The position numbers were made by a program, and so were the translations under genes. From sequence record DRR378314_695: a stretch of 46,692 nucleotides of DNA. One strand, given 5' to 3'. The notes under the pieces are model-generated. The model worked only from the letters and a program-made list of their open reading frames with translations. It ran no database searches and had not been told where the DNA came from. Below are positions 14,133 to 34,317 of the stretch, in pieces. Each line of letters begins with the position of its first letter. Positions within the stretch are counted from its first letter, which is position 1.

Positions 14133-14144
14133 GGAGGTGACGCT

Positions 14145-15743: not shown

Positions 15744-16295
15744 ATGCTGAAGACCGCAGTTTCTGGCCTGTCGCGGGTCGCCAATTCACTCGCAATCGCT
15801 GCCAACGCCTTGGGTACGCTTGTCGTCCTAGCGTTGGTGGTTGTGCTGAATGTCGACGTCATTGCACGTGGCCTGTTTTCAGCCCCGCTGCGTGGCACTT
15901 ATGAGATGGTGCAATTCTCGGTCGTGATGATCGTCTTTTTACAGCTGGCAGATGTGGTCAGAGTTGACAGGCTGACACGCTCGGACGGGTTCCTGAACCT
16001 GCTACACCATCGTCGCCCGGGCCTAACAGCCAACCTGAGGCGCATCATCAACGCCATCTCGGCGATCTTCATGGCATTGATCGCCTATGTGACATTCCCT
16101 GAATTCCTACACATGTGGCAGACGCAGGACTACTTCGGAGTTCCGGGTCTTTTTACATTGCCATGGTGGCCGGTAAAATTGGTCATCGCGTGCGGGACTG
16201 CGCTTGCCTGCGTGATCTTCCTGCTAAAGGTCGTCACGGCGCAGGACCGCCCGCAACTTGTCCGCACCCCAGAACATGACGAGGCCGCAGAATGA
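15744..16295 (+). CDS. dctQ: TRAP transporter small permease
   Basis: DVIARGLFSAPLRGTYEMV; 4 TM segments; position in the triad. Confidence 0.88.
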   Translation: MLKTAVSGLSRVANSLAIAANALGTLVVLALVVVLNVDVIARGLFSAPLRGTYEMVQFSVVMIVFLQLADVVRVDRLTRSDGFLNLLHHRRPGLTANLRRIINAISAIFMALIAYVTFPEFLHMWQTQDYFGVPGLFTLPWWPVKLVIACGTALACVIFLLKVVTAQDRPQLVRTPEHDEAAE

Positions 16296-17596: not shown

Positions 17597-17606
17597 GGAG
17601 GCCAAG

Positions 17607-19385: not shown

Positions 19386-20048
19386 CTACATCGCCTCCAA
19401 GGTATGAGCGAGGCCATTTCGGATGTGATCTTCCAAAAGCTTCTTGGCCGTATCGGCGTCTCTGGTCAACGCAGCGTCGAACATACCCTTGTGCTCCTTG
19501 ACTGCCTCTTCGCCGCGATAGGTCAGCACGAGCATCTGATACCGCAGATACTTATCGTAGATGATTGAGTGCAGAGACAGAAGGTTCTTGGAGTTGCAGG
19601 CCGCAATCATCGCTTGGTGGAACTCCCAATCATACCGTTTCCAAGTCTCTTTCTCGGAATCGTCGCCCTTGAGAAGCTGCTGCTCAATCAAGTGCAGCTT
19701 ATGATGCGCAGCAACCAGGTTTCCTTCCCAATCCGTGTCGCCGCTCGCAATCGACAATTCCAGCGCGTGGCATTCCAGCAGGACGCGCAATTCGGCTATT
19801 TCAGTCAAATCTTCGCGAGAGACCGGAGTGACCAGGAAACCCCGTTGTTCCGGCGCTTCGACAAACCCGTCGCTGGCAAGCCTGTTGAGGGTTTCACGAA
19901 GTGTCGAAAGACTTGCCGAGTAGCGCTCTTTCAATGCGTCCAGCTTCAGTTTGGAGCCGGGCTGCAACTCTCCAAAGATGATATCTCGTTTGATGCGCTG
20001 ATAGGTGCTTGCACCTATTGTAGACGGCTGTTTCGCCATGCTTTTCAC
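19386..20048 (-). CDS. GntR/FCD family regulator (resembles 11409-12074)
   Basis: GELQPGSKLKL, TLRETL, EQRGF, DWEFH, YLRYQ, EHKGM; alternative ATG at 20039. Confidence 0.9.
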   Translation of the reverse strand: MKSMAKQPSTIGASTYQRIKRDIIFGELQPGSKLKLDALKERYSASLSTLRETLNRLASDGFVEAPEQRGFLVTPVSREDLTEIAELRVLLECHALELSIASGDTDWEGNLVAAHHKLHLIEQQLLKGDDSEKETWKRYDWEFHQAMIAACNSKNLLSLHSIIYDKYLRYQMLVLTYRGEEAVKEHKGMFDAALTRDADTAKKLLEDHIRNGLAHTLEAM

Positions 20049-20248: not shown

Positions 20249-21331
20249 GTGTCTAAGAACTTTCGCGTTGCCATAGTCGGCATTGGCCTTGTTGGACGCC
20301 GCCACGCAGACGCAATTCGAGCGTTGCGTCATGTCGATCTTGTGGCGGTCGTCGATCCCAGTGACGAAGGCCGCGCATATGCCGATGAGCATGGGGTTGA
20401 GTGTTACGAGACCCTCGAGGAGATGTTTGCAAACCAATCGCCGGATGGCGCTGTGCTTGCGACCCCGACGACACTTCATGTAGAACAAGGCCTTACGTGT
20501 GTTCGACACGGTTGCCCCGTTCTTGTCGAAAAGCCAATTGCTGTGGAAGCCATTGCAGCCCTGGAGCTTGTTCAGCAGGCCGAGAAGGCAAATGTGCCGC
20601 TCATGGTTGGGCATCATCGTCGACACAATCCCCTGATCAAGTCAGCCAAAGAAGCGATTGCAAGCGGGAAGATCGGTGACGTCCGAGCAGTCCATGCGAA
20701 CTGTTGGTTTTATAAGCCCGACGAGTATTTTGATGCCGCTCCCTGGCGAAAGAAACCAGGGGCAGGTCCCATCTCGGTCAATCTGGTTCATGACGTTGAT
20801 CTTTTAAGGCATCTGGCCGGAGAGGTCATAACCGTCCAGGCACAATCTGCTGTTTCACAGCGCGGTTATGACAACGAAGATGTTGCCGGAGCGCTGTTGA
20901 CATTCGAAGGCGGAGCGATTGGCACCATAAGTGTTTCTGACAGCATCGTTGCTCCGTGGAGCTGGGAGATGACATCTCAGGAATATCCAATTTACCCGTC
21001 CACCACCGAAAGCAGCTACATGATTGGGGGCTCACATGGGTCGTTGTCTGTCCCGGATCTCCGACTATGGAGCTACCAGGGCGGGCAAAGGGACTGGTGG
21101 ACGTCAATCTCGTCAACGGCGCTGAAGAAAGGTGCATCTGACCCGTTGGTCAATCAGCTCAGGCACTTTGTTGAAGTTGCTCGGCATGAAGCAGATCCGA
21201 TCGTGTCCGGATGGGAAGGCTTTAGAACACTTCAAGTTATTGAAGCCATACAGAATTCCTGCAGAACTGGCGAGGTGATCAGGATCGAATCCTTTCAAAA
21301 GTCACCTATGGCAAATGTACCGGTGGCATAA
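20249..21331 (+). CDS. Gfo/Idh/MocA family NAD(P)-dependent oxidoreductase
   Basis: GIGLVGRRH, ATPTTLH, VEKP, GHHRRHNP, NLVHDVD. Confidence 0.9.
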   Translation: MSKNFRVAIVGIGLVGRRHADAIRALRHVDLVAVVDPSDEGRAYADEHGVECYETLEEMFANQSPDGAVLATPTTLHVEQGLTCVRHGCPVLVEKPIAVEAIAALELVQQAEKANVPLMVGHHRRHNPLIKSAKEAIASGKIGDVRAVHANCWFYKPDEYFDAAPWRKKPGAGPISVNLVHDVDLLRHLAGEVITVQAQSAVSQRGYDNEDVAGALLTFEGGAIGTISVSDSIVAPWSWEMTSQEYPIYPSTTESSYMIGGSHGSLSVPDLRLWSYQGGQRDWWTSISSTALKKGASDPLVNQLRHFVEVARHEADPIVSGWEGFRTLQVIEAIQNSCRTGEVIRIESFQKSPMANVPVA

Positions 21332-21346: not shown

Positions 21347-21431
21347 GTAAAACATCTTGCAAAATGTCCAAAATAGGTCAAAACTTGGAATCGTCAAAAA
21401 GAAGCATCATGATGTCTCAGGGAGGAGCAAA

Positions 21432-22442
21432 GTGATTACCAAACTTACCCGCCGGGCTGCTGTGTCAGCCCTGGTCGCAACCGGTGTCCTGTTTAGCGCA
21501 ACAAGTGGTGCGCTGGCGGAAGACAAAGTGCAACTACGACTCGCAACGTCAGGATCGGAGACAGATCAGCGTTCGGTCGCTTTGGCCGAGGTTTTCGCTC
21601 CGATGGTTGCCGATTTCGCAAGTTATGAGCCCAGCTATAACGGCACCATCTTCGCCCAAGGCACCGAGCTGGACGCCATCAGCCGAGGTAACCTGGAAAT
21701 GTCGATTACTTCGGCGCAAGAACTGGCTCAGTTCTTCCCCGAATTTTCGATCTTTACAGCCGGTTATGTCCACCAGGACGCCGCGCATCAGGTTGCCGTC
21801 TTCAACGATCCATTGATGGATACCTTCAAGCAAAAGGCCGAAGAAGAATTGGGCGTCAAACTGCTGTCTGTCATGTATCTGGGCCGCCGCCAGGTGAATT
21901 TGCGCCAGCCCAAGGATGAGCTGACAGTTTCTACGCCCGCGGACCTGGAAGGCGTGAACCTACGGATGCCGGGCACTGATGCGTGGCAGTTCCTCGGTAA
22001 AGCACTGGGCGCAGCCCCGACACCAATGGCCTTCTCAGAGGTTTATACAGCTCTGTCGACCGGTGCCGTTGACGGTCAGGACAACCCGCTGCCGACCGTG
22101 GTGGATGCCAAGTTTTATGAAGTGACAAATCAGATCGTTCTAACGTCGCATCTGGTGGACCTTAACTATATCGCCATTGGCAAAGAGGTTTGGGACGGGC
22201 TGACGCCAGAGCAGCAAGAAAAGGTTCAAGCCGCAGCTGATGCAGCGGCGGAATCGGGTCGCCAGAAACAGTTGCAGAAAGAAGAGGACCTCGTCAGCTT
22301 CCTCAAGGAGCAAGGCATGGAAGTCTACGAGCCCGATCTCGCGGCTTTCCGCGATCAAGTACAATCCATGTATCTTGATAGCGAATTCGCCGGTTCCTGG
22401 CCGGACGGTGTGCTGGAACAGATCAACGCTCTGGGCAACTGA
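21432..22442 (+). CDS. dctP: TRAP transporter substrate-binding protein
   Basis: GGAGGAG RBS plus GTG; signal peptide; LRMPG, PTPMAFSEVYTALSTGAVDGQDNP, KFYEV. Confidence 0.92.
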   Translation: MITKLTRRAAVSALVATGVLFSATSGALAEDKVQLRLATSGSETDQRSVALAEVFAPMVADFASYEPSYNGTIFAQGTELDAISRGNLEMSITSAQELAQFFPEFSIFTAGYVHQDAAHQVAVFNDPLMDTFKQKAEEELGVKLLSVMYLGRRQVNLRQPKDELTVSTPADLEGVNLRMPGTDAWQFLGKALGAAPTPMAFSEVYTALSTGAVDGQDNPLPTVVDAKFYEVTNQIVLTSHLVDLNYIAIGKEVWDGLTPEQQEKVQAAADAAAESGRQKQLQKEEDLVSFLKEQGMEVYEPDLAAFRDQVQSMYLDSEFAGSWPDGVLEQINALGN

Positions 22443-22472
22443 GTTCTGTAAAACTAGGGAGGGAGAACCGCA

Positions 22473-23048
22473 ATGAAAGCCTTTATCAAGGGGTTCTCCC
22501 GACTGACCGAAGCGATTGCCGGCGGGATGCTGGCGGCAATCTTCCTGATTTTCCTTCTGCAAATTCTCCTGCGGTACTTCTTTACGCCCGCTGGTTGGAC
22601 GCTTGAACTGATCGGCATCCTTTGGGTCTGGGTGATCTTCTTCAGTTGCGCCTTCATCGTGCGCGAGAGGGATCATGTGAAGTTTGACATCATCTACCTT
22701 TCGGTTCCGATGCGCGTACGTCAGGTCTTTGCGATGTTGGCGGCTGCGGCGATCGTGGTTGGAATGCTCTACAGCTTCCTGCCGACGTGGGACTACATCG
22801 ACTGGATGAAAATCCGCAAAACAGCGACCGTCCGCAATCCCTTCTCGGGTGAGAAGATACCACTGCGCACCGTGTTTTCGATCTATGCCGTGTTCATGTT
22901 GGTTGTCGCCGCGCGGTATGCATGGCTGTTCTTTGACATCATGCGCAACGGCCCACCAAAAACCGAACTTGAAATGGTCGTGGGATATAACGTGGTTGAC
23001 GATCATCCCCGAGTCGACGGTGAAGACGACGAGGACGCAAGCAAATGA
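22473..23048 (+). CDS. dctQ: TRAP transporter small permease
   Basis: QILLRY, WTLEL, HVKFDI; 4 TM segments. Confidence 0.9.
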   Translation: MKAFIKGFSRLTEAIAGGMLAAIFLIFLLQILLRYFFTPAGWTLELIGILWVWVIFFSCAFIVRERDHVKFDIIYLSVPMRVRQVFAMLAAAAIVVGMLYSFLPTWDYIDWMKIRKTATVRNPFSGEKIPLRTVFSIYAVFMLVVAARYAWLFFDIMRNGPPKTELEMVVGYNVVDDHPRVDGEDDEDASK

Positions 23049-24340
23049 GTTTTGAACTTCTTTCCTGCCTGCTCGCACTTTTTCTTCTGGCAGGTATCGG
23101 CACGCCTATCGGCTATTCTATCCTCTTGGCCTCTTTGGTGTATTTGGGCACCGCCGGATTGGACGTCGCTCTCGCGGGTGAAAAGATCCTGCAAGGCTTC
23201 TATAAAAGCACGATCCTGCTTGCCGTGCCTCTGTTCATCGTCGCAGCCAATATCATGAACGCTGGGTCGATCACGGACCGTCTGCTAAACTTCTGCGTCG
23301 CTGCTGTCGGTCGTTTCAAAGGCGGTCTTGGGCATGTAAACGTGGTAGCATCTCTGATCTTTTCGGGTATGTCCGGCTCGGCTGTCGCGGATGCCGCGGG
23401 GATCGGCAAAATCATCATTGAGATGATGACCAAGGATGGCCGCTATAGCCGTGGATATGCTGCAGCGATCACAGCGGCTTCGGCTACGATCGGTCCGATT
23501 ATACCGCCCTCGATCCCAATGGTCCTTTATGCGCTCGTTTCCAAGGCCTCCATCGGGTCTCTGTTCCTGGCCGGTATTCTGCCGGGCCTGATCATGGGCG
23601 TCGTCCTCATGGCGATGAACTACTATCTGGCCGGAAAACGGAACTTTGCGCTGGAAGAACCTGTTCCGCTGCGCGAGTTGCCCGCAAAAACCGCCAACGC
23701 GTTTCCAGCATTGCTGATGCCCGCAATCCTGCTCTACGGCATCTATGGCGGTGTCACCACTCCGACCGAGGCCGCCGCAGTTGCTGCTTTCTACGCGTTA
23801 CTATTGGCGGCGTTGTTCTACCGGGCACTGACCTTCCGTGGTCTTTATCAGGTGTTCGTCGATAGTGCCCGTTCGTCTGCGGCCGTGGGGGTGGTTATCG
23901 GTGGCGCGTTTATTCTGAACTTCATCGTAATCCAAGAACAGATTCCGCAGTCGATCTCGGCTCTGCTAGAAGGCTCAGATGTCAGCCCAATTGTCTTCCT
24001 GATCCTCGTCAATCTGCTGATCCTCGCGCTGGGATGCGTATTGGACGCAACGACGATCATTCTAGTGATTGTGCCCCTATTTATTCCCACCTGCGAAGCG
24101 CTCGGGATCGATCTGGTGCATTTCGGGGTTCTGGTCGTCGTGAACTCGATGATCGGCCTGATCACGCCGCCCTATGGCATTCTCCTCTTTGTGATCAACG
24201 CCGTAACGGACATTCCGCTGCGTGAAATCATCTCGGAAATTTGGGCCTTCCTCGCGGTGCTCATCTTCGCCTTGGTGATCATGATGCTGATGCCCGATCT
24301 AGTCCTTTGGTTGCCGCGTATGTTTGGGTATCAGGGATAA
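23045..24340 (+). CDS. dctM: TRAP transporter large permease
   Basis: LLAVPLF, GMSGSAVADAAG, GPIIPPSIP, TPTEAA, ITPPYG. Confidence 0.93.
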   Translation: MSFELLSCLLALFLLAGIGTPIGYSILLASLVYLGTAGLDVALAGEKILQGFYKSTILLAVPLFIVAANIMNAGSITDRLLNFCVAAVGRFKGGLGHVNVVASLIFSGMSGSAVADAAGIGKIIIEMMTKDGRYSRGYAAAITAASATIGPIIPPSIPMVLYALVSKASIGSLFLAGILPGLIMGVVLMAMNYYLAGKRNFALEEPVPLRELPAKTANAFPALLMPAILLYGIYGGVTTPTEAAAVAAFYALLLAALFYRALTFRGLYQVFVDSARSSAAVGVVIGGAFILNFIVIQEQIPQSISALLEGSDVSPIVFLILVNLLILALGCVLDATTIILVIVPLFIPTCEALGIDLVHFGVLVVVNSMIGLITPPYGILLFVINAVTDIPLREIISEIWAFLAVLIFALVIMMLMPDLVLWLPRMFGYQG

Positions 24341-26232
24341 TGTGCCTGTCAGTTTCGACAACGTCGATCCCCGGCGATCTGGCTGAGAAACTTAGTGCTA
24401 TCGCTGACGCAGGATTCGGAGGCGTCGAATTACACGAACCGGATTTGACCGCTTTTGACGAACCGCCATCGCAAGTCCGCGAAATTGCATCGGACCTCGG
24501 CCTGAAGATTTGCCTGCTACAATCCTTCCAAAACCTTGAAGGCCAGGCCGACGCCGGACGGGAGCGCGCCTTTGATCGGCTGAAGCGCAAACTCGACCTG
24601 ATGAGCGAGTTGGGTACGGATCTGCTGCTAATCGGGTCTGCCTTCGAGGTCGATGCCACTGCTACCGAAGAACAGGTAATCGCAGACCTGGGCGAGGCGG
24701 CCAAAATCGCGAAAGAGATGGGGCTGCGTCTGGCCTATGTGGGTTTGCCCTGGTCGGATCTTATTCACTCGGATGAGCAGGCGTTACGCGTCGTTGAAAC
24801 CATCGACAGCCCTCATCTGGGGTTGGCGTTGAACTCATTCTTCGCGCTTGCCGACGGGTCCAAACCCGCCCGCCTTCGGGACATTCCCGGAGAGCGGCTA
24901 TTCCATGTGCAACTGTCCGATGCACCCCGGCTTGAGATGGACATACGTCGGCTCAAACGTCACTTTGGGCTTCTACCAGGGCTTGGGTCGCTGAACCTTG
25001 CTGGCTTCGTACGGGTGTTGTCCCGCGCCGGGTACAAGGGGCCTTGGTCCATTGCGCGCGTCAACGAAGCAGCTCCTCAACCCGGTGGCCGAACACTGGC
25101 CCGAGACAGCTACAGGTCGCTGGTGAACCTCCTGGATGAGGTGTCCCGGACCGAGCCGGGAACCGATTTCGGCATCCCGGACCTGCCGGAACGCGTCTAT
25201 GCGTCAGGCTTTGAGTTCGTCGAATTTACAGCCGACGAAACAAGCGGCGCGCAGCTGGCAGACATGCTCTCGGCCATGTGTTTTCGAATGGAGCGAAAGC
25301 ATGTGAGCAAGTCCGTCGAGTTGTGGCGGCAGGGCGCGATAAACATCGTGGTGAATACTGAAAAGGAAGGCTTTGCCCATTCGGCGTTCCTGGGCCACGG
25401 TCCTTCGGTCTGCGACATGGGGTTGCGCGTCAGGGATGCGGATCAAACGGTTCAGCGCGCGACTGCGTTGGGCGCGCCGAATTTCTCTCAGCCAGTGGGA
25501 ACAGGGGAACTGGACATCCCGGCCATCCGAGGCGTCGGTGGCAATGTTGTCCATTTTATCGACGAGAAATCCGATCTGCACCGAGTCTGGGACATCGAGT
25601 TCGAGCCGGTTGCGAAAACCAAAGCTACCCAACCAGCCGGTCTTCGCCGTATCGACCATCTGGCACAGACGATGCGTCATGATGAGATGCAAAGCTGGCT
25701 GCTCTACTACATTTCGACTTTCGAGATGGCAAAATCCCCTATCGTGAACGTCGCCGACCCGTCCGGTGTCGTGCAAAGCCAGGCTATTGAAAGTCCCGAA
25801 GGGGAAGTGCGCTTAAACCTGAACGGGGCAGTTGGGCGCCGAACTCTGGCAGCGTCATTCCTTGAAGATGGTTTTGGGGCCGGTGTTCAGCACATCGCCT
25901 TTCAGTCGGACGACATATTTGAAACTTCAGACCAATTGCGCAAATCCGGCTTTCCCAGCCTGTCCATCCCTGAAAACTACTACGCTGATCTGCAAGCGAC
26001 TTTCGGATTGGATGACGATTTGATCGCCCAGCTGCGCCGAGGCAACATTCTCTACGATCGGGCAGCGGGTGCCGAGTATTTTCAGATATACAGCCGCCCC
26101 ATCTTCAACGGGTTCTTCTTCGAAATTGTTGAACGCCGCATGGGCTATGCCGGTTATGGCGCGCGGAACGCGCCCATTCGCCTTGCCGCGCAAAGCAAAA
26201 ATCAGACGGTGAAAGAGGTGCAGACTCAATGA
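24340..26232 (+). CDS. QuiC1-like fusion (xylose-isomerase-like TIM barrel + HPPD-like VOC domain); N-terminal active site appears degenerate
   Basis: TAATG overlap with dctM; AGFGGVEL, VQLSDAP; C-domain FEFVEF, LWRQGAI, RIDHLAQ, GVQHIAF, NILYDR, FFFEIVERR, GYGARNAPIRLAAQ. Confidence 0.88.
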   Translation: MCLSVSTTSIPGDLAEKLSAIADAGFGGVELHEPDLTAFDEPPSQVREIASDLGLKICLLQSFQNLEGQADAGRERAFDRLKRKLDLMSELGTDLLLIGSAFEVDATATEEQVIADLGEAAKIAKEMGLRLAYVGLPWSDLIHSDEQALRVVETIDSPHLGLALNSFFALADGSKPARLRDIPGERLFHVQLSDAPRLEMDIRRLKRHFGLLPGLGSLNLAGFVRVLSRAGYKGPWSIARVNEAAPQPGGRTLARDSYRSLVNLLDEVSRTEPGTDFGIPDLPERVYASGFEFVEFTADETSGAQLADMLSAMCFRMERKHVSKSVELWRQGAINIVVNTEKEGFAHSAFLGHGPSVCDMGLRVRDADQTVQRATALGAPNFSQPVGTGELDIPAIRGVGGNVVHFIDEKSDLHRVWDIEFEPVAKTKATQPAGLRRIDHLAQTMRHDEMQSWLLYYISTFEMAKSPIVNVADPSGVVQSQAIESPEGEVRLNLNGAVGRRTLAASFLEDGFGAGVQHIAFQSDDIFETSDQLRKSGFPSLSIPENYYADLQATFGLDDDLIAQLRRGNILYDRAAGAEYFQIYSRPIFNGFFFEIVERRMGYAGYGARNAPIRLAAQSKNQTVKEVQTQ

Positions 26233-27056
26233 CCGCGCAGATGACAAGCGATGAGCGCGCCGTTCGCCAATGGTGGCGTACCTCCATCATCGACATGAAA
26301 CCCGGACAGATCGCTTTTCGCGGCAACGCCATAGAGGACCTGATCGGGAACGTATCTTTCCCGCAGATGATCTGGTTGATGGTGCGGGGCGATCTGCCCA
26401 GCGACGCGCAAGCGCGCCTGTTCGAAGCCGCTTTGGTCGCAGGCGTGGATCACGGCCCACAGGCTCCCTCAATCGCGGCGGCGCGTATGGCTGCGACCTG
26501 CGGGGTTGGCCTCAACAACGCGATGGCGACTGCAGTGAACATGCTGGGCGATGTGCATGGCGGGGCAGGGGAGCAGTGTGCAGAGCTGTACTATGATATC
26601 GCGGTTCGCACGGATGCGGGAGCTTCGCTGAACGACGCTGTTCGGGATGGTCTGGACAGCTGGCGCGAGACCTACGGCAAGATCGTCTCGGGCTTTGGCC
26701 ACAGGTTTCACAAACCCGTCGACCCGCGCGCACCCCGATTGATGCAACTGGTTCGAGAAGCCGCGAATGATGGCACCGTTTCCGGCCGCTATGCCGATAT
26801 CGGAGAAGAAGTTCAAGCCGAACTCGGTCGCCAACGCGGCGGTCGGCCAATTGCCATGAATATCGACGGCGCAACAGCTGTGATCTTCTGCGAACTTGGC
26901 TTTCCTGCGCCCTTGTCACGCGGGCTGTTCTGCCTGTCCCGCTCGGTCGGTATTCTGGCCCACGCTTGGGAGCAGATGAACCAGGGTGGCCGCAACAAAG
27001 GGCCGATGCCCCCGAATTACTTACCCCTCTACGAAGACAGGAATGATGACACGTGA
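26229..27056 (+). CDS. Citryl-CoA lyase-like protein (short citrate synthase family)
   Basis: DHG, APS, VHGGAG, GFGHRFH, DPRA, NIDG, SRSVGILAH; 275 aa. Confidence 0.85.
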   Translation: MTAQMTSDERAVRQWWRTSIIDMKPGQIAFRGNAIEDLIGNVSFPQMIWLMVRGDLPSDAQARLFEAALVAGVDHGPQAPSIAAARMAATCGVGLNNAMATAVNMLGDVHGGAGEQCAELYYDIAVRTDAGASLNDAVRDGLDSWRETYGKIVSGFGHRFHKPVDPRAPRLMQLVREAANDGTVSGRYADIGEEVQAELGRQRGGRPIAMNIDGATAVIFCELGFPAPLSRGLFCLSRSVGILAHAWEQMNQGGRNKGPMPPNYLPLYEDRNDDT

Positions 27057-28233
27057 GACATCGAAATCCTTCCGGGTCGGCCTTATCGGCTGTGGTCGTA
27101 TCAGCGATATCTATCTAAAAACACTATCCAAATTTTCGAGCGTCGAGGTCGTGGCTTGCGCAAGCCTTGATCCTTCGGAAAGCCGCGCCAAGGCGGATCA
27201 ATATGGCATCGTCAAAGCCTGCGCACCAGATGAGGTGTTTGACGATCCGACGATTGACTGCGTTCTGAACCTGACAATTCCGGCGGCGCATGCCGAAATC
27301 AGCCTGCGTGCGTTAGAGGCGGGCAAGCACGTCTATTCCGAAAAGCCGCTGGTTATGAATCGAACTGATGGTAAGGCGATCCTGTATACTGCCACTGAAA
27401 AGGGGCTACTGATCGGTTGCGCACCCGACACGTTTCTGGGCGGTCGTTGGCAGACCGTTCGGCGCTTGATCGACGAGGGTGCTATCGGGAAGCCGACAGG
27501 CGTTTTTGCCCATGTCGGGACCCACGGGACGGAGCGCCACCATCCCAACCCGGATTTCTACTACCAGGCCGGTGGCGGGCCCTTGCTGGACCTTGGCCCC
27601 TATTACTTGACCGCCATGATTTTCTGCCTTGGGCAAATTGACCGGGTCGCCGGAATGGCTCGGCGCACGTTCGACAAAAGGATGATCGAAAACGGTCCTC
27701 GCAACGGCGAATGGATGGATGTCGAGGTCGACACTCACTCCCTAAGCCTGCTTCAGTTCTCATCCGGAGCTATAGGGTCGATGACCATGAGCTTCGACGT
27801 CTGGGACAGCGAAACTCCGCGGTTCGAGATCTACGGTGAAAACGGCACCATCAGCATCCCTGACCCTGACCCGGTTCATGGAGCTAACATCTTTCAGGGG
27901 GATGTCTGGTTGAAAACGCGGGACACCTCACGCTGGTCTTATCAACCTCGTCCAACCGGTCGCGAAGACTGGCAGGTGATAGACAACAAACACGGGTTCA
28001 ATGAAGACAGCCGCGGGCTCGGCCTTTTGGATCTGGCTCTGGCGGCACAAGAAGGACGCCAACCGCGTGCAAGTGGAGCGCTTGCCTACCACGTTTTCGA
28101 GGTCATGGACGCAATCGAGCGGGCGCCGAAATTCGGCGCCTATCAGACGATAGAAAGCCGTTGCGCGGCTCCGGAGCCTCTGCCGGTCGATTTCCTATTT
28201 AATGAGAGGAAGGAGTTGGTCCATGCCGATTGA
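27043..28233 (+). CDS. Gfo/Idh/MocA family oxidoreductase
   Basis: GCGRIS, NLTIPAAH, GKHVYSEKP, GCAPDTFLG, HPNPDFYY, GGPLLDLGPYY. Confidence 0.9.
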   Translation: MMTRETSKSFRVGLIGCGRISDIYLKTLSKFSSVEVVACASLDPSESRAKADQYGIVKACAPDEVFDDPTIDCVLNLTIPAAHAEISLRALEAGKHVYSEKPLVMNRTDGKAILYTATEKGLLIGCAPDTFLGGRWQTVRRLIDEGAIGKPTGVFAHVGTHGTERHHPNPDFYYQAGGGPLLDLGPYYLTAMIFCLGQIDRVAGMARRTFDKRMIENGPRNGEWMDVEVDTHSLSLLQFSSGAIGSMTMSFDVWDSETPRFEIYGENGTISIPDPDPVHGANIFQGDVWLKTRDTSRWSYQPRPTGREDWQVIDNKHGFNEDSRGLGLLDLALAAQEGRQPRASGALAYHVFEVMDAIERAPKFGAYQTIESRCAAPEPLPVDFLFNERKELVHAD

Positions 28234-28897
28234 GACACTCGACTTTGCTCAGCCATTCTTTCGCGTCCAGCACATCACTGACGAGCGCAGAATATCTGTC
28301 GAGGGTCGCGCCATTGTTCTGAACCTCGGGGGGAGGGGCCTCGCGGTCGAGGATCAGGCCATTGCACCGCTTTCCTCTGTGATCGTGCAAGACAGCACGC
28401 TTAGCGGCGTGGAACGTGCAGTCATTGTCCACGATTTCGACGCCCATGCCGATGACAACGAGCTGTTCGCATGGGTGAAAGATACGTGGCCATCTGCTTT
28501 TGATGTCCGCCAAGAGGAGCGTCTGCGCGGTGTCAGCCATTACATGTCGCCAAAGGTCTTCGTGGGTAACGTTGGACTGACCATGTACCATTCCGGCTCG
28601 GTTCCACTGAACGTCGGATTGCACAAGGATCATCCGTTCTGCCCGGTACCGGGGTTTCGCGAAGTGCATACGCAAATCGTAGGCTTTGGCAAAATGCAGC
28701 AATTCCGCGAACGGGACTTTAAAACCCTTTATCTCGAAGAATTCATGGCTCCGGGCGCGACACATAAGCCGATGTATGACGCTGAAGGCAACTATCCCTG
28801 GCATCAATACGAGACGATTACCCCCAGCATCTTTATGGCGGTGGAAATACTGCCCGAGGACGCGCGGGTTCCGGACATGGAGGTTCAGAATGGCTGA
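28223..28897 (+). CDS. Hypothetical protein with a C-terminal aldos-2-ulose dehydratase/isomerase (AUDH)-like cupin
   Basis: AGGAG RBS, overlaps both neighbours; LHKDH, FREVHTQIVGFGKMQQF, MAPGATH, YPWHQY, MAVE resemble the AUDH cupin pattern. Confidence 0.65.
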   Translation: MPIETLDFAQPFFRVQHITDERRISVEGRAIVLNLGGRGLAVEDQAIAPLSSVIVQDSTLSGVERAVIVHDFDAHADDNELFAWVKDTWPSAFDVRQEERLRGVSHYMSPKVFVGNVGLTMYHSGSVPLNVGLHKDHPFCPVPGFREVHTQIVGFGKMQQFRERDFKTLYLEEFMAPGATHKPMYDAEGNYPWHQYETITPSIFMAVEILPEDARVPDMEVQNG

Positions 28898-30080
28898 GAG
28901 ACTTTTACCCGAAAATCTGCACTTTGATGGACCTTTCCCCCGCCTGTCCCGCCGTTTGCGGCTGGGCGTTGTGGGCGGTGGACGTATTTCAGTCACGCAG
29001 GCAACGGCGGCCCGGATGACCGACCGGTGGGAGGTCGCCGCAGGCGCGCTCAGTTCAGATGCCGCGCGCAGCATGGCGCGCGGGGTCGAGTGGTTCCTGC
29101 CATCAGACAGGTGTTATGCGTCCTTCGACGAAATGGCGGGGGCCGAGGCGGCGCGCCCGGATGGCGTGGATGCTGTGATGATCACCACCCCGAACCACGT
29201 TCATTTCGACGCGGCCAAAGCGTTTCTGGAAGCAGGCATCGATGTGCTGTGTGACAAACCCCTGACCAATGAAGTCGCCAAAGCCGAGGGACTTGAGGAA
29301 ATCACCGCGCGTACGGGACAGGTCTTTGCCGTCGGCTATGCGATGTCGTGTTTTCCAGTGATCCGGCAGGCCAAACATATTGTCGCCGAAGGAGGCATCG
29401 GCAAGATCAACCAAATTCATGTTGAATTCATGCAAGATTGGATGACGCCCGAAGATGTGGCTGATGCGCCCCATGTCAAATGGAGGTTGGACCCCAGGAT
29501 CTCAGGCCCAACCAGTTGTGTCGGTGATATCGGCACCCATGCCGCGCATCTCGCCAGCTTTGTCTCGGGTCTGCCGATGACCGACCTGAGGGCCGAGTTC
29601 CATGTCTGCGGCGCGCCAAAGCCTTTGGAAGACACGGTTTTCATGTTCACCCGCTATCAAAACGAGGTTCCCGGGACCTTGGTGGCGACGCGCCTTGCCC
29701 CCGGAAACCGGGGTGGGTTGCGGTTGCGGATCTTCGGCAGCGAAGGAGGTCTCGAGTGGGACTTGGAGAACTCGGAACAGCTGAAGTTCAATCGGTTTGG
29801 TGAGCCGGATCGTATCATCAGCCGAGGTCACGGGCATGGCATCGGCCCCGGCGCAGAACGTCTGATCCGTACCGCGCGAGGCTTCCCCGAAGGAATTATC
29901 GAAGCCTGGGCCAACCTGTATACTGAATTTGCCATGGCGGTTGCCGCGCGCCGGGATGGCGTCACCGTTCCGGCCGATTGGCTTACTTATCCCGGTGTGG
30001 GTCAAGGTGCAGACGGTGTCCGATTCATTGACGCTTCTGTGCGCTCTCACCAGTCCGGAGGCGATTGGGTCACTAACTAA
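28890..30080 (+). CDS. Gfo/Idh/MocA family oxidoreductase
   Basis: LRLGVVGGG, ITTPNHVH, CDKP, WRLDP, GDIGTHA, EAWANLY; GGAGG RBS. Confidence 0.9.
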   Translation: MAERLLPENLHFDGPFPRLSRRLRLGVVGGGRISVTQATAARMTDRWEVAAGALSSDAARSMARGVEWFLPSDRCYASFDEMAGAEAARPDGVDAVMITTPNHVHFDAAKAFLEAGIDVLCDKPLTNEVAKAEGLEEITARTGQVFAVGYAMSCFPVIRQAKHIVAEGGIGKINQIHVEFMQDWMTPEDVADAPHVKWRLDPRISGPTSCVGDIGTHAAHLASFVSGLPMTDLRAEFHVCGAPKPLEDTVFMFTRYQNEVPGTLVATRLAPGNRGGLRLRIFGSEGGLEWDLENSEQLKFNRFGEPDRIISRGHGHGIGPGAERLIRTARGFPEGIIEAWANLYTEFAMAVAARRDGVTVPADWLTYPGVGQGADGVRFIDASVRSHQSGGDWVTN

Positions 30081-30183: not shown

Positions 30184-30231
30184 TACTACGTGTGATAAAA
30201 TGAGATTCGCAGACACGTGGAGCTGTCGTTC

Positions 30232-31146
30232 ATGGTGAAACCCGAAGAGGTTGGCACAAGCCCCTCTCTCTATTCCTTGGCGCATCTGACGCTGATCGGC
30301 TGTACGCCGCCCGAGTTGGTCTATATCGCCGCACGGGCCGGATACGATGCCGTCAGCCCTCGGTTCATCCCAATGCATGTGCAGGGTGAATTCACTCAAT
30401 CCCCAATCGACAAGGCACAGGTGCAGGCCACCAAAACTGCTCTCTCTACCACCGGCTTGAAAGTTCTCGATGTCGAGCTTGCGCGCATCACCGAGGATGT
30501 CGATCCGCGCAGTTTTGAGCCTTCGCTGGAGATCGGTGGGGAACTGGGCGCCAAACGCATGATCATGAGCGCGTGGACCAACACCCGCGATGATCGTGAC
30601 TTTCTGATCGACGTCTATTCTGAGACTTGCGAACTGGCAGCGCCCTATGGGCTGACGGTGGACCTGGAGTTCCCGAGCTTCTCTCGCTTGCGCACTCTGG
30701 ATGAGGCGCTGGATATTGTCCGCGCCTCCGATCAGCAAAATGGTGGTATTCTGGTCGACACGCTCTATCTGCACCTCAGCCGAGTGGATCTCGGGGAGCT
30801 TTTGCACGTCCCTTCGGACCTGTTTCACTTCCTGCACATCTCTGATTGCCTGCCCGGCATCGCTGATACGCGCGAGGGCATGATCCAACTTGCCCGCGAT
30901 GCGCGGCTCTATCCTGGCGAAGGCTGGATCGATTTCACCGGCATCATCGAACGCATGCCACCCGTCGATTATTCTATTGAACTGCCCAACCAAAGCCGCG
31001 TTGCCGAGTTGGGGTATGAAGAACACGCGCGTCGCTGTCTCAGCCACGCCAAGCGAACATTCGGCGAGGCGCGGTCACAGCGCCGTATGCCCGATGCAGC
31101 AATTCCAAAACACCAAGAGGATTATCATGGGCAAAGAGCTCACTGA
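30232..31146 (+). CDS. Sugar phosphate isomerase/epimerase family (xylose-isomerase-like TIM barrel)
   Basis: SLAHLT, AGYDAV, DVEL, DLEF, LVDTL, HISDC, RLYPGEG, SIELP. Confidence 0.85.
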   Translation: MVKPEEVGTSPSLYSLAHLTLIGCTPPELVYIAARAGYDAVSPRFIPMHVQGEFTQSPIDKAQVQATKTALSTTGLKVLDVELARITEDVDPRSFEPSLEIGGELGAKRMIMSAWTNTRDDRDFLIDVYSETCELAAPYGLTVDLEFPSFSRLRTLDEALDIVRASDQQNGGILVDTLYLHLSRVDLGELLHVPSDLFHFLHISDCLPGIADTREGMIQLARDARLYPGEGWIDFTGIIERMPPVDYSIELPNQSRVAELGYEEHARRCLSHAKRTFGEARSQRRMPDAAIPKHQEDYHGQRAH

Positions 31147-32536
31147 AAACGACCGCCAACTGGCGGCCGATATGCTGTCACGCGCCCGCGCTGCAATGGC
31201 CGAAATCGAGGATTGGGATCAGGACCGCCTGGACCGCCTGTCTCAGGCCATTGCGTGGTACGCTGGGAACGAGACAACCTTCACACGTCTGGCCCAGCAA
31301 GGCGTGGACGAAAGCGGTATCGGAGATCGTGCGGGACGTCCAGCAAAGCGGTTCAAGATTCACATGGTGCTGCGCGATGTCCTGCGCACGCCATCGACCG
31401 GCATTGTTGAGGTTGATGAGGAAAAGGGGCTCGTGAAGTACGCTAAACCTGCCGGTGTGATCGCGTCTCTGATCCCCATGACTAACCCAGCGATGACACC
31501 ACCGGTGACCGGCGTTTCCGCAGCCAACGCCCGGAATGCGGTCATCTTCAGTCCGCACCCGCGAACCGCCCAAACTACTTTTGAAATGGTTGAGGTCATG
31601 CGTGCAGCCTGTCGTGCGGCCGGTGCCCCCGAGGACTTGTTTCAATCCATTCGCAAACCGTCGATCCCATTGACGCAACATCTGATGGAGATCTGCGACC
31701 TGACGCTGGCGACTGGCGGCAAGCCGATGGTCAAAGCTGCCTATAGCTCGGGCCGTCCGGCGTATGGCGTCGGTGCTGGCAATTCGTCCATCATCATCGA
31801 TGAAACCGCCGATCTGGACATTGCGGCGCAGAATACGCGTATTTCTAAAACGTCAGACTTTGGTTCAGGTTGTTCCGCAGACGGTAACATCATTATCCAG
31901 CGTTCGGTCTACGACGATATGGTCAAGGCGCTTGAGGCCGAAGGCGGGTACCTATGTTCGGGCGAAGAGAAGGTCATGCTCGAAACCGCCATGTGGGACG
32001 AAAAGGGCAACCGTACGTTCCCAACCATCGCCTGCCCGCCGCAGCAAACGGCTAAGGTCGCGGGTTTCTCGATCCCCGAAGATCGCAAATTCCTGATGGT
32101 TGAAAATCAGGGGCAAATCGGGCCGCAGCACAAGTTTTCGAAGGAAAAACTGACCACGCTGATGGCGCTTTATCACTTCGACACTTTCGATGAAGCGCTG
32201 GAAACGGTCACCCAGATCTACAACACCGGAGGTAAGGGTCATTCCTGCGGGATTTATAGCCATAACGACGATCACATCGATCGGCTCGCGCGCTTGGCCC
32301 CGGTCAGCCGCATGATGGTGCGACAGCCACAATCGAAGGCCAACGCTGGTTCTTGGACCAATGGCATGCCTATGACTAGCAGCCTGGGATGCGGTATCTG
32401 GGGCGGAAACATCACCAATGAAAACGTCACCATAAAACATATGATGAACTACACCTGGGTGAGCCGTCCAATCCCCGAGGATCGCCCTTCGGAGCCTGAC
32501 CTGTTCGGTGAGTTCTACGGACAGGAGGTCGCGTGA
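31127..32536 (+). CDS. CoA-acylating aldehyde dehydrogenase (SauS/EutE/AdhE-N-like)
   Basis: IPMTNP, FSPHP, ATGG, AYSSGRPAYGVGAGN, SKTSDFGSGCSA (catalytic Cys), EKL, GKGHS, LGCGIWGGN. Confidence 0.88.
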   Translation: MGKELTENDRQLAADMLSRARAAMAEIEDWDQDRLDRLSQAIAWYAGNETTFTRLAQQGVDESGIGDRAGRPAKRFKIHMVLRDVLRTPSTGIVEVDEEKGLVKYAKPAGVIASLIPMTNPAMTPPVTGVSAANARNAVIFSPHPRTAQTTFEMVEVMRAACRAAGAPEDLFQSIRKPSIPLTQHLMEICDLTLATGGKPMVKAAYSSGRPAYGVGAGNSSIIIDETADLDIAAQNTRISKTSDFGSGCSADGNIIIQRSVYDDMVKALEAEGGYLCSGEEKVMLETAMWDEKGNRTFPTIACPPQQTAKVAGFSIPEDRKFLMVENQGQIGPQHKFSKEKLTTLMALYHFDTFDEALETVTQIYNTGGKGHSCGIYSHNDDHIDRLARLAPVSRMMVRQPQSKANAGSWTNGMPMTSSLGCGIWGGNITNENVTIKHMMNYTWVSRPIPEDRPSEPDLFGEFYGQEVA

Positions 32537-34317
32537 TGGACGGAGTGAAACTGGAAGGCAAAACCGTTGCCGAACACATCGTAGATTTCCTCGAACGTCG
32601 TGAGGTCAAGCACGTATTTGGCCTGTGCGGACACACGAACATCGCGGTTTTGGCCGCGTTGGCCGAAAGCCCGATTGATTTCGTCACTGTAAGACATGAA
32701 CAGATCGCCAGCCATGCGGCGGACGCCTATGCCCGCGTGACGGGCAAGGCCTCGGTGGTATTGTCACACCTCTCCCCAGGTTTGACAAACTGCGCCACCG
32801 GGGTCGCCAACGCGGCGCTGGACTGTATCCCCATGGTCGTGATCGCGGGTGACATTCCCACACATTACTATGGCAAACATCCGCATCAGGAGGTGAACCT
32901 GCACGCAGACGCCGCCCAGTGGGAGATCTATCGCCCCTTTGTCAAACGCGCTTGGCGGGTGGATCGCGCGGACCTCATGGCTGAGATCTTGGAGAAGGCG
33001 TTCCATCTGGCCGAAAGTGGCCAGCCCGGGCCGGTACTGGTCAATGTCCCCATGGACGTTTTTTCCGATGTGATCCCGTCGGACAGCTTCGACCGTATCC
33101 GCGACAACACCCGCGCGCTCAAGAAACCGTCGATTGACGATGAAACAGCGTGTGAAATCATTGAGGCACTGGCACAGGCTGAAAACCCGGTCGCTTATGT
33201 CGGTGGCGGTATCCTGCTGGCACAAGCCAGCGAGGAGTTGCGCGAATTCGTTGAGCATATGGGCCTGCCCGTCGCGCATTCCTTGATGGGTAAAGGCGCC
33301 CTACGGGACGACCATCCGCTTGTATTGGGAATGACTGGCTTTTGGGGCACCGAACTGGTTAACCAATCCTGCCTGAATGCGGACTACATCTTTGCCGTGG
33401 GCACGCGGTTCAAAGAGGCCGATTGCTCTAGCTGGTATCCCGGCTACACGTTCAACATTCCGGGGTCCAAGGTCATTCATATTGACATCGAACCGCAAGA
33501 GATCGGCCGGAACTATCCCACCGAGATCGGTGTCGTTGCGGACGCCAAGGCCGCGCTGCGTGTTCTGACCCGCGTTGCCAGAGAGATGTATCCGGACGGG
33601 TTTAACCGCCCCGCGCTGGAACAGAAGATCGCCGATTTCCGGACGGATTTCAAAGCCCGCAATGTGGAAATGGCGACCTCATCCGCGTTTCCGATGATGC
33701 CCGAGCGTATTCTGGCAGATACCCGAAAGGCGCTGCCCGAGGATGCCATCATCACGACGGATGTTGGATGGAACAAAAACGGGGTAGGGCAACAGTTCGA
33801 TATCCTGACGCCCGGCTCGATCCTGACCCCGGGCGGGTTTGCTACGATGGGTTTTGGCCCTCCGGGTGCCATCGGCGCGAAACTGGCAGCACCTGATCGT
33901 GTGGTTCTTAGTCTGGTTGGTGATGGAGGTTTTGGTCAGAATCCGTCGATGCTGGCAACAGCAGTCGAACTTGATCTGGGCATCATCTGGCTGGTGATGA
34001 ACAACAATGCGTTTGGCACTATCGCAGGCCTTCAAAAGGCGCACTACGGTCTAACCTATGGAACCACGTTCCCTGGATCAGCCGAGGCGCCCGCCAACGG
34101 ACCGGGCTACGCAGATATTGCGCGTGCATACGGTGCTGAAGGGCACAGGCTGAGCTCTGCTGATGAACTATTGCCTGCATTGGAAGCGGCAATCGCCAGC
34201 GGCAAACCAACTGTTCTCGATGTCCCAATGATCAACAACCCAACTCCAACGACCGGGCACTGGAACATTCTGGACATCTACTCCCCCGACAAAGAGGTTT
34301 CCCACGTCGCGACTTAA
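32536..34317 (+). CDS. ThDP-dependent enzyme (acetolactate synthase-like fold), substrate unknown
   Basis: VFGLCGHTN, VRHEQ, SPGLTN, PGPV, TDVG, ATMGFG, GDGGF...NNN ThDP motif; TGATG overlap; alternative GTG at 32533. Confidence 0.9.
   Translation: MDGVKLEGKTVAEHIVDFLERREVKHVFGLCGHTNIAVLAALAESPIDFVTVRHEQIASHAADAYARVTGKASVVLSHLSPGLTNCATGVANAALDCIPMVVIAGDIPTHYYGKHPHQEVNLHADAAQWEIYRPFVKRAWRVDRADLMAEILEKAFHLAESGQPGPVLVNVPMDVFSDVIPSDSFDRIRDNTRALKKPSIDDETACEIIEALAQAENPVAYVGGGILLAQASEELREFVEHMGLPVAHSLMGKGALRDDHPLVLGMTGFWGTELVNQSCLNADYIFAVGTRFKEADCSSWYPGYTFNIPGSKVIHIDIEPQEIGRNYPTEIGVVADAKAALRVLTRVAREMYPDGFNRPALEQKIADFRTDFKARNVEMATSSAFPMMPERILADTRKALPEDAIITTDVGWNKNGVGQQFDILTPGSILTPGGFATMGFGPPGAIGAKLAAPDRVVLSLVGDGGFGQNPSMLATAVELDLGIIWLVMNNNAFGTIAGLQKAHYGLTYGTTFPGSAEAPANGPGYADIARAYGAEGHRLSSADELLPALEAAIASGKPTVLDVPMINNPTPTTGHWNILDIYSPDKEVSHVAT

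Follow-up and report, generated by a model that had tools for sequence, protein, structure and literature searches.

This locus raises the question of why a gene of a dehydratase family should stay whole after losing most of the residues of its dehydratase site. The gene lies at 24340-26232 on the plus strand of sequence record DRR378314_695, a stretch of 46,692 nucleotides that was analysed at its full length and is called the window below. It encodes a QuiC-like protein, related to the 3-dehydroshikimate dehydratases QuiC1 of Pseudomonas putida and QsuB of Corynebacterium glutamicum, in which an N-terminal xylose-isomerase-like TIM barrel is fused to a C-terminal domain resembling 4-hydroxyphenylpyruvate dioxygenase (HPPD). 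From our comparisons, the gene is no degraded QuiC but a member of a separate, widespread paralogous family that is carried in another conserved operon. As to its role, we propose with moderate confidence that it is a repurposed QuiC1/QsuB-type paralogue, in which the barrel has been remodelled and the C-terminal Fe(II) half is presumably the catalyst, acting on a ring acid that resembles quinate or 3-deoxy-D-manno-oct-2-ulosonate (KDO).

The reading frame is free of stops and translates to 630 amino acids (aa), as an earlier sequence-only reading of this DNA had claimed. An alternative, longer open reading frame (ORF) starts at TTG 24241, while the start of the orthologues corresponds to ATG 24340 (consensus MxLS..TTS). 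This ATG overlaps the TAA of the upstream DctM gene by one base, and at the other end the TGA and the start codon of the following gene, which encodes a citryl-CoA-lyase homologue (CCL), run together as ATGA; such overlaps of start and stop codons are a usual sign of co-translated operon genes. Pfam assigns AP_endonuc_2 to residues 19-249 and Glyoxalase_5/Glyoxalase to residues 289-558. Membership of the second half in the VOC superfamily is indicated by Glyoxalase_5 (1e-36), by Glyoxalase and Glyoxalase_4 (5e-06), and by structural matches to chains of HPPD and hydroxymandelate synthase (HMS). The nearest solved structure is P. putida QuiC1 (PDB 5HMQ), with an E value of 1.1e-145 across residues 3-622. 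An AlphaFold2 model computed from 68 aligned sequences has a mean pLDDT of 90.8 and a pTM of 0.90, with the barrel mostly above 90, and Foldseek aligns it with 5HMQ at a TM-score of 0.89-0.90. Pfam, 5HMQ and Foldseek therefore agree on the barrel plus HPPD-like fusion of the QuiC1/QsuB-type dehydratases, with which the protein shares architecture, residue numbering and the 2-His-1-Glu site at 39-40% identity.

The likeness ends at the dehydratase site. In the QsuB paper (PMC7442255), on whose list the residue roles used here rest, the active site of QuiC1 and QsuB comprises R64, L97, E134, L136, D165, H168, Q191, S206, R210 and E239. At these ten sites the QuiC-like protein has Q64, L97, V134, L136, N165, F168, Q191, K206, G210 and A239 by alignment to 5HMQ, so seven of the ten residues are replaced, including all three acidic ones. 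The metal ligands among them are taken to be Glu134, Asp165, Gln191 and Glu239, and Q191 alone is kept. Of the substrate and catalytic residues, L97 and L136 are retained and the other four (Q64, F168, K206, G210) are changed. All substitutions quoted in the sequence-only reading are found in this alignment (gyEalawg to YVGLPWS, ilDsfH to LNSFF, wSrhfR to KRHFG and slEifn to SIARVN), and its claim that most metal and catalytic residues are replaced agrees with the loss of three of the four metal ligands and of His168. The NCBIfam QuiC equivalog model NF042435 (cut-off 1200) gives the protein 540.5 bits, 10 intact representatives 522-947 bits and eroded ones 247-487 bits; we dropped its cut-off as a test of membership, since intact relatives fall short of it too.

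The loss is not private to this strain, one of the conditions under which the sequence-only reading would have been given up. When the best 120 of 1668 matches (8000 scored) were aligned with the query, E134, H168 and E239 were each absent from all 121 sequences, and the 2-His-1-Glu triad was kept in all 121. Position 134 is V in 2, M in 19, L in 70 and I in 30 sequences, position 168 is F in 107, L in 11 and Y in 3, and Asn165 is present in 120. In the clade of 125 sequences, neither Glu134 nor Glu239 occurs and His168 occurs once. We also scanned genomes, one per species, for the motifs [IV]DH[VL]AQTM and VHFIDE[KQ]S, both of which differ from QuiC1 at the first position. At least 600 stretches were found, and 557 of the 600 listed encode a relative. 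The best 80 of these form the 80 loci referred to below, and the window together with 76 of them provided 77 orthologous coding sequences; three partial matches (L019, L034, L070) and L078 were left out. The 77 orthologues have the same site loss, bar one His at position 168, and all keep the triad. The window gene, which comes from a Ruegeria, is 98% identical to that of an uncultured Ruegeria and 93-96% identical to those of named Ruegeria species. The loci span many Rhodobacterales genera, Hoeflea, Roseibium/Labrenzia and Afifellaceae, a metagenome-assembled genome (MAG) of Ca. Puniceispirillum (SAR116), Arenicellales and another gammaproteobacterial MAG.

Two irregular cases were seen among these loci. 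In L078 (Roseivivax MAG, 4056-5942) the orthologue as extracted has an internal stop; the gene may be a pseudogene, or the stop may come from misassembly or from the way the start was extended. In Ruegeria sp. HKCCD8929 one assembly has two relatives on two contigs (L021 and L034), 81% identical over the full length and 91% over residues 299-630, which means either two gene copies or a mixed assembly.

For comparison, a canonical set was drawn from 150 listed representatives of 50%-identity clusters: 86 are full-length (560-700 aa) and 57 are canonical at eight selection positions, so that all 57 have D165, H168, S206, R210 and E239 by selection. A FastTree phylogeny was computed with 90 rows, namely the query, four family members and all of the 86 representatives but P0271, and rooted at the midpoint. 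The query belongs to a clade in which 14 of the 15 rows are eroded and one is partial, with an SH-like support of 99, which is a local support only, beside the intact P0128 and P0129; some other eroded members are scattered elsewhere. The clade thus shares ancestry with QuiC1 and QsuB and is nested beside intact members, and the loss of the dehydratase site probably had one main origin. By this comparison the loss is old and fixed in a large clade, and since the relatives share it, it is not a matter of chance or of a sequencing artefact. Recent decay, or a pseudogene, was considered and rejected on the intact frame, the clade-fixed changes and the substitution ratios of 0.05-0.10 described next.

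Ratios of nonsynonymous to synonymous divergence (dN/dS) were evaluated by the Nei-Gojobori method (NG86) for 275 orthologue pairs with 0.1 < dS < 1.5. The median is 0.100 (interquartile range, IQR, 0.074-0.145) for the N domain (residues 1-275) and 0.047 (IQR 0.035-0.067) for the C domain (residues 289-620), and nine neighbouring genes gave 0.044-0.094 by the same method. Both domains are under purifying selection, and as the value of the barrel is similar to those of its working neighbours, the barrel is constrained and not decaying. The mean pairwise identity of the 77 orthologues is 58% in the N domain and 74% in the C domain. On the other hand, the 57 canonical representatives average 49% and 31.5%, with the N identity higher than the C identity in every pair. 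The constraint between the domains is therefore reversed: it is stronger on the C domain in the clade and on the N domain in the canonical dehydratases. QsuB and QuiC1, with 50.9% identity in the N domain and 39.9% overall according to PMC7442255, follow the direction of the canonical set. The sequence-only reading had proposed that selection maintains the VOC domain or a non-catalytic role; the C domain is indeed the more constrained half, with nine invariant positions, but the barrel is selected as well.

An observation of another kind concerns synonymous divergence: when the window gene is paired with those of close Ruegeria, the N and C domains differ sharply. The respective dS values are 0.063 and 0.432 for the pair with L001, and 0.995 and 0.566 for the pair with L005. 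This looks like intragenic recombination.

The motifs RIDH (H440), GVQH (H518) and FFFE (E595) are present in the QuiC-like protein, so the retention of IDH, VQH and FFE noted earlier holds. The three residues align with positions 161, 240 and 322 of Pseudomonas fluorescens HPPD 1CJX (counted from the alignment), which we take to be its iron ligands. Table 1 compares the 125 clade sequences with the 57 canonical representatives at these and six further HPPD-type positions of the second shell. All nine are invariant in the clade, while the complete triad is found in 47 of the 57 canonical dehydratases. The place of Phe337 of 1CJX is taken by Ala in all 125 clade members, and that of Gln225 by Phe or Leu. 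For S201, N216, Q225, Q239, Q309, N336 and F337 of 1CJX we assume roles in the second shell and in binding the aromatic substrate. The HPPD equivalog model TIGR01263 gives the protein 206.8 bits, below its cut-off of 277.

Table 1. HPPD-type residues of the C-terminal domain in the clade and in canonical dehydratases
Residue	Residue in 1CJX	Clade	Canonical representatives
H440	H161	125/125	55/57
S480	S201	125/125	51/57
N495	N216	125/125	45/57
Q517	Q239	125/125	34/57
H518	H240	125/125	48/57
Q582	Q309	125/125	20/57 (His in 35)
E595	E322	125/125	55/57
R599	R326	125/125	57/57
N610	N336	125/125	50/57

Compared with HPPD 1CJX and HMS 2R5V, the protein has the VOC fold, the exact triad and the matches to S201, N216, Q239, Q309, R326 and N336; it differs in being fused to a barrel, in its score below the HPPD cut-off, in the changes at Phe337 and Gln225, and in its context, which is an operon for a ring acid or sugar acid and not one for tyrosine catabolism.

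The barrel has also acquired features of its own. Twelve sites are conserved within the clade and within the canonical set and differ between them. Eleven are in the N-terminal barrel (canonical to clade: V8T, G139A, D165N, H168F, A193S, L203R, W205L, S206K, R210G, F212L, E239A), and the twelfth is G314C. New residues specific to the clade are H189 (123 of the 125), R203 (102) and K206 (106), and the conserved set in the old pocket consists of N165, F168, H189, S193, R203 and K206. The old dehydratase pocket thus seems to have been rebuilt more than merely eroded. The word "eroded", used in the sequence-only reading, is correct in that the dehydratase residues are gone, but it understates what is found in a barrel that is selected, confidently modelled and provided with new conserved pocket residues. 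With residue loss, purifying selection and a retained fold together, the N-terminal barrel fits the description of a pseudoenzyme domain.

The ancestry of the family points to quinate. In 30 of the 80 loci, from many genera, a QsuD-type dehydrogenase gene lies between the QuiC-like gene and CCL (e.g. L012:11889-12761). It scores 315.7 bits against NF009201 (cut-off 235), and its best PDB match is 3JYO (3e-62), which has the title "Quinate/shikimate dehydrogenase" and which we take to be C. glutamicum QsuD. More distant relatives of the QuiC-like protein, all below 60% identity, are found in 607 records of the plasmid collection. Four annotated ones (47-51% identity) were examined, from Sulfitobacter sp. 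W002 (NZ_CP081129.1), Loktanella salsilacus (NZ_CP072995.1), Chelatococcus daeguensis (NZ_CP018096.1) and Limimaricola variabilis (NZ_CP139693.1), and all ten dehydratase residues are intact in each. These genes belong to ordinary plasmid quinate clusters with an adjacent shikimate/quinate dehydrogenase in three of the four, the type II dehydroquinase gene aroQ in three and pca genes in two: pcaF/pcaIJ in Loktanella, and pcaC, pcaH, pcaG, pcaD, pcaB (3-carboxy-cis,cis-muconate cycloisomerase), pcaF and pcaIJ-type CoA-transferase genes in Sulfitobacter. The transporter is of the TRAP type in three, where its genes adjoin the two-domain gene, and TTT in Limimaricola. Unlike the window operon, the clusters lack CCL, the second TIM barrel (TIM2), the aldehyde dehydrogenase and the thiamine pyrophosphate (TPP) enzyme. 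The Sulfitobacter cluster has the gene order DctP-DctQ-DctM-fusion gene of the window. The window DctP and DctM are 47-49% and 56-58% identical, respectively, to the Chelatococcus/Loktanella cluster proteins (L081/L082), and DctP is about 30% identical to that of Sulfitobacter. The simplest reading is that a quinate/shikimate module of transporter, dehydrogenase and fusion protein was duplicated and then joined to other downstream enzymes.

Searches of the window operon with Pfam and NCBIfam found no quinate/shikimate dehydrogenase, dehydroquinase or pca genes, and pcaG, pcaC and pcaB were found in none of the 80 loci and aroQ in three. The sequence-only reading had held that the protein does not aromatise its substrate; the operon without dehydroquinase and pca genes is in line with this, but from the genes present, the formation of protocatechuate can only be called unlikely. 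The three loci with aroQ are from Nioella (L046, L047, L072), where a type II dehydroquinase is encoded downstream on the opposite strand at about 18.08-18.49 kb. L046 and L072 also have a weak pcaD-like match (27% identity), and Nioella is the only genus with a dehydroquinase link among the 80 loci.

Table 2 lists the features of the operon. CCL scores 440.6 bits against NF004864, above the cut-off of 261, and its best PDB match is citryl-CoA lyase 6HXP (1.8e-42). It follows the QuiC-like gene in 78 of the 80 loci. Of its motifs, HGGAG, DPR and NIDG do not vary among the 77 orthologues, while GFGHR is shared by 76 and LSRS by 74. In TIM2, aligned to 1I60 (IolI) and 5HMQ, E134 and D165 correspond to Glu and Asp and Q191 to His, and we read the Glu of its SIEL motif, just past the end of the 5HMQ alignment, as the probable equivalent of E239. 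The Gfo/Idh/MocA oxidoreductase Gfo1 is IolG-like at 137.9 bits, below the cut-off. The aldehyde dehydrogenase is SauS-like at 424.9 bits (cut-off 600) and EutE/AdhE-like. The best NCBIfam and PDB matches of the TPP enzyme are below their cut-offs, and the PDB matches of Gfo1 and the TPP enzyme indicate no specific function.

Table 2. Coordinates of the QuiC-like gene, its parts and the surrounding operon in the window
Feature	Position	Strand	Basis and remarks
QuiC-like two-domain gene (P0001, 630 aa)	24340..26232	+	Pfam, PDB 5HMQ, AlphaFold2/Foldseek
N-terminal xylose-isomerase-like TIM barrel, residues 1-275	24340..25164	+	5HMQ alignment
Codons of the former dehydratase site	V134 24739-24741, N165 24832-24834, F168 24841-24843, A239 25054-25056	+	
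C-terminal HPPD-like VOC domain, residues 289-620	25204..26199	+	1CJX alignment
2-His-1-Glu codons	H440 25657-25659, H518 25891-25893, E595 26122-26124	+	
GntR/FCD regulator, divergent	19386..20048	-	Pfam GntR+FCD; same position in 71/80 loci
Gfo/Idh/MocA oxidoreductase Gfo1, first gene of the operon	20249..21331	+	Pfam; 73/80 loci
TRAP transporter block	21357..24340	+	Pfam/NCBIfam
DctP	21357-22442	+	true start probably later
DctQ	22473-23048	+	
DctM	23045-24340	+	
CCL, citrate-synthase-fold citryl-CoA-lyase homologue	26229..27056	+	NF004864, PDB 6HXP
Accessory module	27043..30080	+	Pfam; starts approximate
Gfo2	~27043-28233	+	
unk28	28202-28897	+	
Gfo3	~28956-30080	+	
TIM2, second xylose-isomerase-like TIM barrel	30217..31146	+	Pfam AP_endonuc_2
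CoA-acylating aldehyde dehydrogenase	31127..32536	+	start MGKELT...; 70/80 loci
TPP enzyme, acetolactate-synthase/glyoxylate-carboligase superfamily	32533..34317	+	Pfam TPP_enzyme N/M/C; 68/80 loci

The full order of 13 genes is identical in 44 of the 80 loci. Another 12 lack just the Gfo2-unk28-Gfo3 block, which leaves a core of 10 genes; this minimal set consists of the divergent GntR gene and of Gfo1, DctPQM, the QuiC-like gene, CCL, TIM2, the aldehyde dehydrogenase and the TPP enzyme. In three Arenicellales loci the whole block of TIM2, aldehyde dehydrogenase and TPP enzyme lies divergently upstream, and in a fourth such locus, L068, TIM2 and the aldehyde dehydrogenase are found there; contig ends interrupt most of the remaining loci. 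The operon is thus conserved across Rhodobacterales, Hyphomicrobiales, the Ca. Puniceispirillum MAG and Arenicellales. The product of unk28, a 231-aa ORF between two Gfo/Idh/MocA genes that is conserved in 59 of the 80 loci, has no significant match in Pfam, NCBIfam or PDB; a weak lead from ESM Atlas features is to clusters where the cupin domain of aldos-2-ulose dehydratase (AUDH) occurs in 33% of members. A universal-stress-protein gene follows the TPP gene in L024 (20754-21269) and 10 other loci (14 by tblastn), and no such ORF is present at 34318-35366 of the window.

The transporter gives a second hint of the substrate. The window DctP matches PDB 4PF6 with 527 bits over 307 ungapped residues, followed by sialic-acid-binding SiaP proteins (1e-39). 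The name of 4PF6 in PDB is "C4-dicarboxylate-binding protein", and we take it to be a Roseobacter denitrificans protein with bound KDO. The pyranose form of KDO resembles quinate, with a ring carbon bearing a hydroxyl and a carboxylate, an adjacent CH2 and then two ring hydroxyls, a resemblance that would explain the recruitment of quinate-type parts. For the putative substrate we keep to the broad term of a ring acid similar to either quinate or KDO.

The proposed role can be put as a sequence of steps. The ancestor would be an intact dehydratase-HPPD fusion in a quinate/shikimate module with a TRAP transporter and a shikimate/quinate dehydrogenase. In the lineage of the clade the divalent-metal dehydratase site of the TIM barrel was lost, and the barrel was retained as a folded, selected part that would serve as a scaffold and/or bind a ligand. 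The HPPD-like domain, which has a 2-His-1-Glu site of the Fe(II) type inside a second shell resembling that of HPPD, became the constrained and presumably catalytic half; by analogy with HPPD and HMS, we infer that it binds Fe(II) and uses O2. The operon would import a six-membered-ring hydroxy-carboxylate, quinate-like by ancestry or else KDO, the presumed ligand of 4PF6. A ring hydroxyl would be oxidised with NAD by Gfo1, or by the QsuD-like enzyme where one is present, and a keto/enediol or alpha-keto-acid intermediate could then chelate the iron of the C domain; under the second option the intermediate would be the alpha-keto-acid form of the imported acid, with the CH2-CO-COO- group that is also found in 4-hydroxyphenylpyruvate. 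In support of such binding, 1,3-diketones chelate the metal of HPPD, as do the triketone inhibitors NTBC, sulcotrione and tembotrione, whose HPPD complexes are among the structures matched by Foldseek. Cleavage or oxidative decarboxylation with O2 would take the place of aromatisation. Downstream, the TPP enzyme would decarboxylate a 4-hydroxy-2-oxo acid, from which the acylating aldehyde dehydrogenase would form a 3-hydroxyacyl-CoA, and CCL would split this into acetyl-CoA and a 2-oxo acid. For a quinate skeleton the series would be 4-carboxy-4-hydroxy-2-oxoadipate, citryl-CoA, and acetyl-CoA plus oxaloacetate.

A more specific version of this chemistry can be drawn, which we regard as speculative and unlikely: an undescribed, non-aromatising, O2-dependent route for a quinate- or KDO-like ring acid that evolved by duplication of the quinate module. 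In this version one or two ring hydroxyls would be oxidised to a cyclic 1,3-diketo/enediol compound, which the HPPD-like domain would bind as HPPD binds the triketones, while the barrel, itself dead, would have the task of holding the ring form or of opening it. C-C cleavage with O2 would give a 4-hydroxy-4-carboxy-2-oxo acid, to be decarboxylated by the TPP enzyme and converted by the aldehyde dehydrogenase into a citryl-CoA-type thioester, from which CCL would release acetyl-CoA and oxaloacetate or another 2-oxo acid. If true, it would be the first chemistry assigned to the C-terminal domain of QuiC1/QsuB.

Several findings weigh against the proposed role of the C domain or limit it. The clade sample, at 54-98% identity to the query, spans far less diversity than the canonical set of 50%-identity clusters, so absolute counts of conserved columns are not comparable between the two, and only the N-to-C direction within each group is used. 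By TIGR01263 the C domain of the clade is not more HPPD-like than the canonical ones: the eroded members score 141-217 bits and the canonical ones 122-209 bits, all below 277. The triad, Q517 and Q582 are found in the closest relatives with an intact site as well (P0128, P0137, L081-L084), and the set of residues in the clade is therefore ancestral and not newly gained. With regard to the substrate, the window itself carries no QsuD-like gene, and KDO as the ligand of 4PF6 is a lead only, for which our literature search gave no confirmation. A citryl-CoA-type lyase fits the quinate skeleton better, because C1 of quinate with its two CH2 arms is the core of citrate, and unbranched KDO fits poorly. 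Lastly, a chemically complete inositol-like route by Gfo1, TIM2, the TPP enzyme, the aldehyde dehydrogenase and CCL can be written without the QuiC-like protein or any oxygenase, so that the operon forces no particular step on this protein. The myo-inositol pathway uses the IolG dehydrogenase, the IolE and IolI TIM barrels, the ring-cleaving TPP hydrolase IolD and the acylating aldehyde dehydrogenase IolA. The operon has the same enzyme classes, and the best PDB match of TIM2 is IolI. On the other hand, all operon proteins stay below the Iol equivalog cut-offs, uptake is by a TRAP transporter and so of an anionic substrate, and CCL and the QuiC-like protein are without counterpart in the Iol pathway.

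Among other explanations, one that we take seriously, although we hold it to be unlikely, is that both halves are catalytic. The barrel would have a new, metal-independent activity or handle the substrate through H189, R203, K206, N165 and Q191, for instance by opening or isomerising the ring acid so that its keto form reaches the iron site of the C domain. The dN/dS of the N domain lies in the range of functional neighbours, the eleven group-distinguishing barrel sites seem all to cluster in the region of the old pocket, and to this are added the new conserved residues and the confident model. But R203 and K206 are not invariant, R207, H208 and G210 vary, and an intact TIM barrel is encoded separately in the operon as TIM2. 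Contacts between the domains alone could also explain the selection; for QsuB oligomers a scaffold role has been proposed for the other domain (PMC7442255). This explanation is compatible with the remodelled barrel and catalytic C domain that we prefer. A division of labour, with TIM2 as the dehydratase that gives protocatechuate or a related catechol and the VOC domain as an extradiol-type ring-cleaving dioxygenase, seems improbable to us. Cleavage would lead to 4-carboxy-4-hydroxy-2-oxoadipate, on which the TPP enzyme, the aldehyde dehydrogenase and citryl-CoA lyase would act in turn, and the CCL homologue would receive true citryl-CoA. In the 5HMQ alignment TIM2 does keep acidic and His ligands, has Arg where R210 stands and shows a PGEG motif; its best NCBIfam match is the QuiC model (weak, 31 bits), and LigC of the 4,5-cleavage route belongs to the Gfo/Idh/MocA family, which is present in the operon. 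Yet TIM2 has Tyr at the place of H168 and Ala at that of S206, no dehydroquinase is found in 77 of the 80 loci, no LigI/LigJ-type genes were seen, and the conserved second shell is of the HPPD type and not of the extradiol type. QsuB, moreover, left protocatechuate unchanged in vitro in an assay with Mg2+ only, according to PMC7442255.

The remaining explanations would leave the C domain without activity or give the protein a known one. That neither half is catalytic and the protein is a scaffold or sensor, which assembles or regulates the other operon enzymes, is very improbable in our view. The loss of the N-domain site would suit it, and PMC7442255 knows of no activity ever found for the C-terminal domain of QuiC1/QsuB. 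But the nine HPPD-type positions, triad included, would hardly be invariant in a mere scaffold; within the gene, dN/dS is lowest in the C domain, at the level of the most conserved enzymes of the operon, and the canonical dehydratases, whose C domain is possibly structural, let these positions drift. Slimmer still is the chance that the protein is a 3-dehydroshikimate dehydratase in which lost ligands are compensated, e.g. by H189, D194, N165 and Q191. Q191 and D194 are indeed retained, the new His189 stands two residues before Q191, and the QsuD-type dehydrogenase is adjacent in 30 loci. Against this, the acidic ligands, His168, R64, S206 and R210 are replaced, mostly by hydrophobic or small residues, the operon has no dehydroquinase or pca gene, and intact relatives in true quinate clusters keep ten of ten residues. 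We give the least credit, next to none, to an ordinary HPPD of tyrosine catabolism, although JGI names such as "4-hydroxyphenylpyruvate dioxygenase" are attached to family members and the triad and several second-shell residues are common to 1CJX. The TIGR01263 score, the fused architecture, and the changes at the Phe337 and Gln225 places speak against it, and homogentisate-pathway genes were not seen among the annotated genes of the operon.

Elsewhere in the window, a sugar-acid island at 79-7301 encodes GntR, DctP, SDR, a PfkB kinase and a UxuA mannonate dehydratase; its 556-aa ORF, in which the DctM domain begins at residue 134, is possibly a fused DctQM. On the minus strand at 8589-12074 is a malonate-type trio of AMP-binding ligase, malonyl-CoA decarboxylase and GntR regulator. 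A third TRAP island at 12430-18473 (+) encodes an FAA-hydrolase-family protein, a nitroreductase, OsmC, DctPQM and an intradiol dioxygenase, whose scores against the catechol and chlorocatechol models stay under the cut-offs; among the 80 loci this island is common to the closest Ruegeria locus only.

The fold, the family and both domain types were already known. What is new is the fixed and selected loss of the dehydratase site, the reversed constraint between the domains and the conserved operon. Our literature search found no description of the clade or the operon; the original QuiC1 paper and the TRAP screening paper were outside the search and may bear on this. With respect to QuiC1/QsuB, the differences come down to the seven replaced dehydratase residues, the reversed constraint and an operon without dehydroquinase or pca genes, and the public names "3-dehydroshikimate dehydratase" and "4-hydroxyphenylpyruvate dioxygenase" are both probably wrong for the clade. 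In the 2020 QsuB paper (PMC7442255), the role of the HPPD-like domain in two-domain dehydratases is stated to be unknown. The suggestion of the sequence-only reading that the protein is a probe for the QuiC C-terminal domain is plausible, but with a limit: in the canonical dehydratases the C-domain positions are relaxed (Q582 in 20 and the triad in 47 of the 57), so the two C domains may not do the same thing. Nevertheless, in the QuiC-like clade the dehydratase chemistry has been removed and selection on the HPPD-like domain has been tightened, which makes it a clean protein in which to seek the activity of this domain. The gene also marks a tightly conserved operon of 10-13 genes in many marine bacteria, through which an abundant ring acid is probably consumed.

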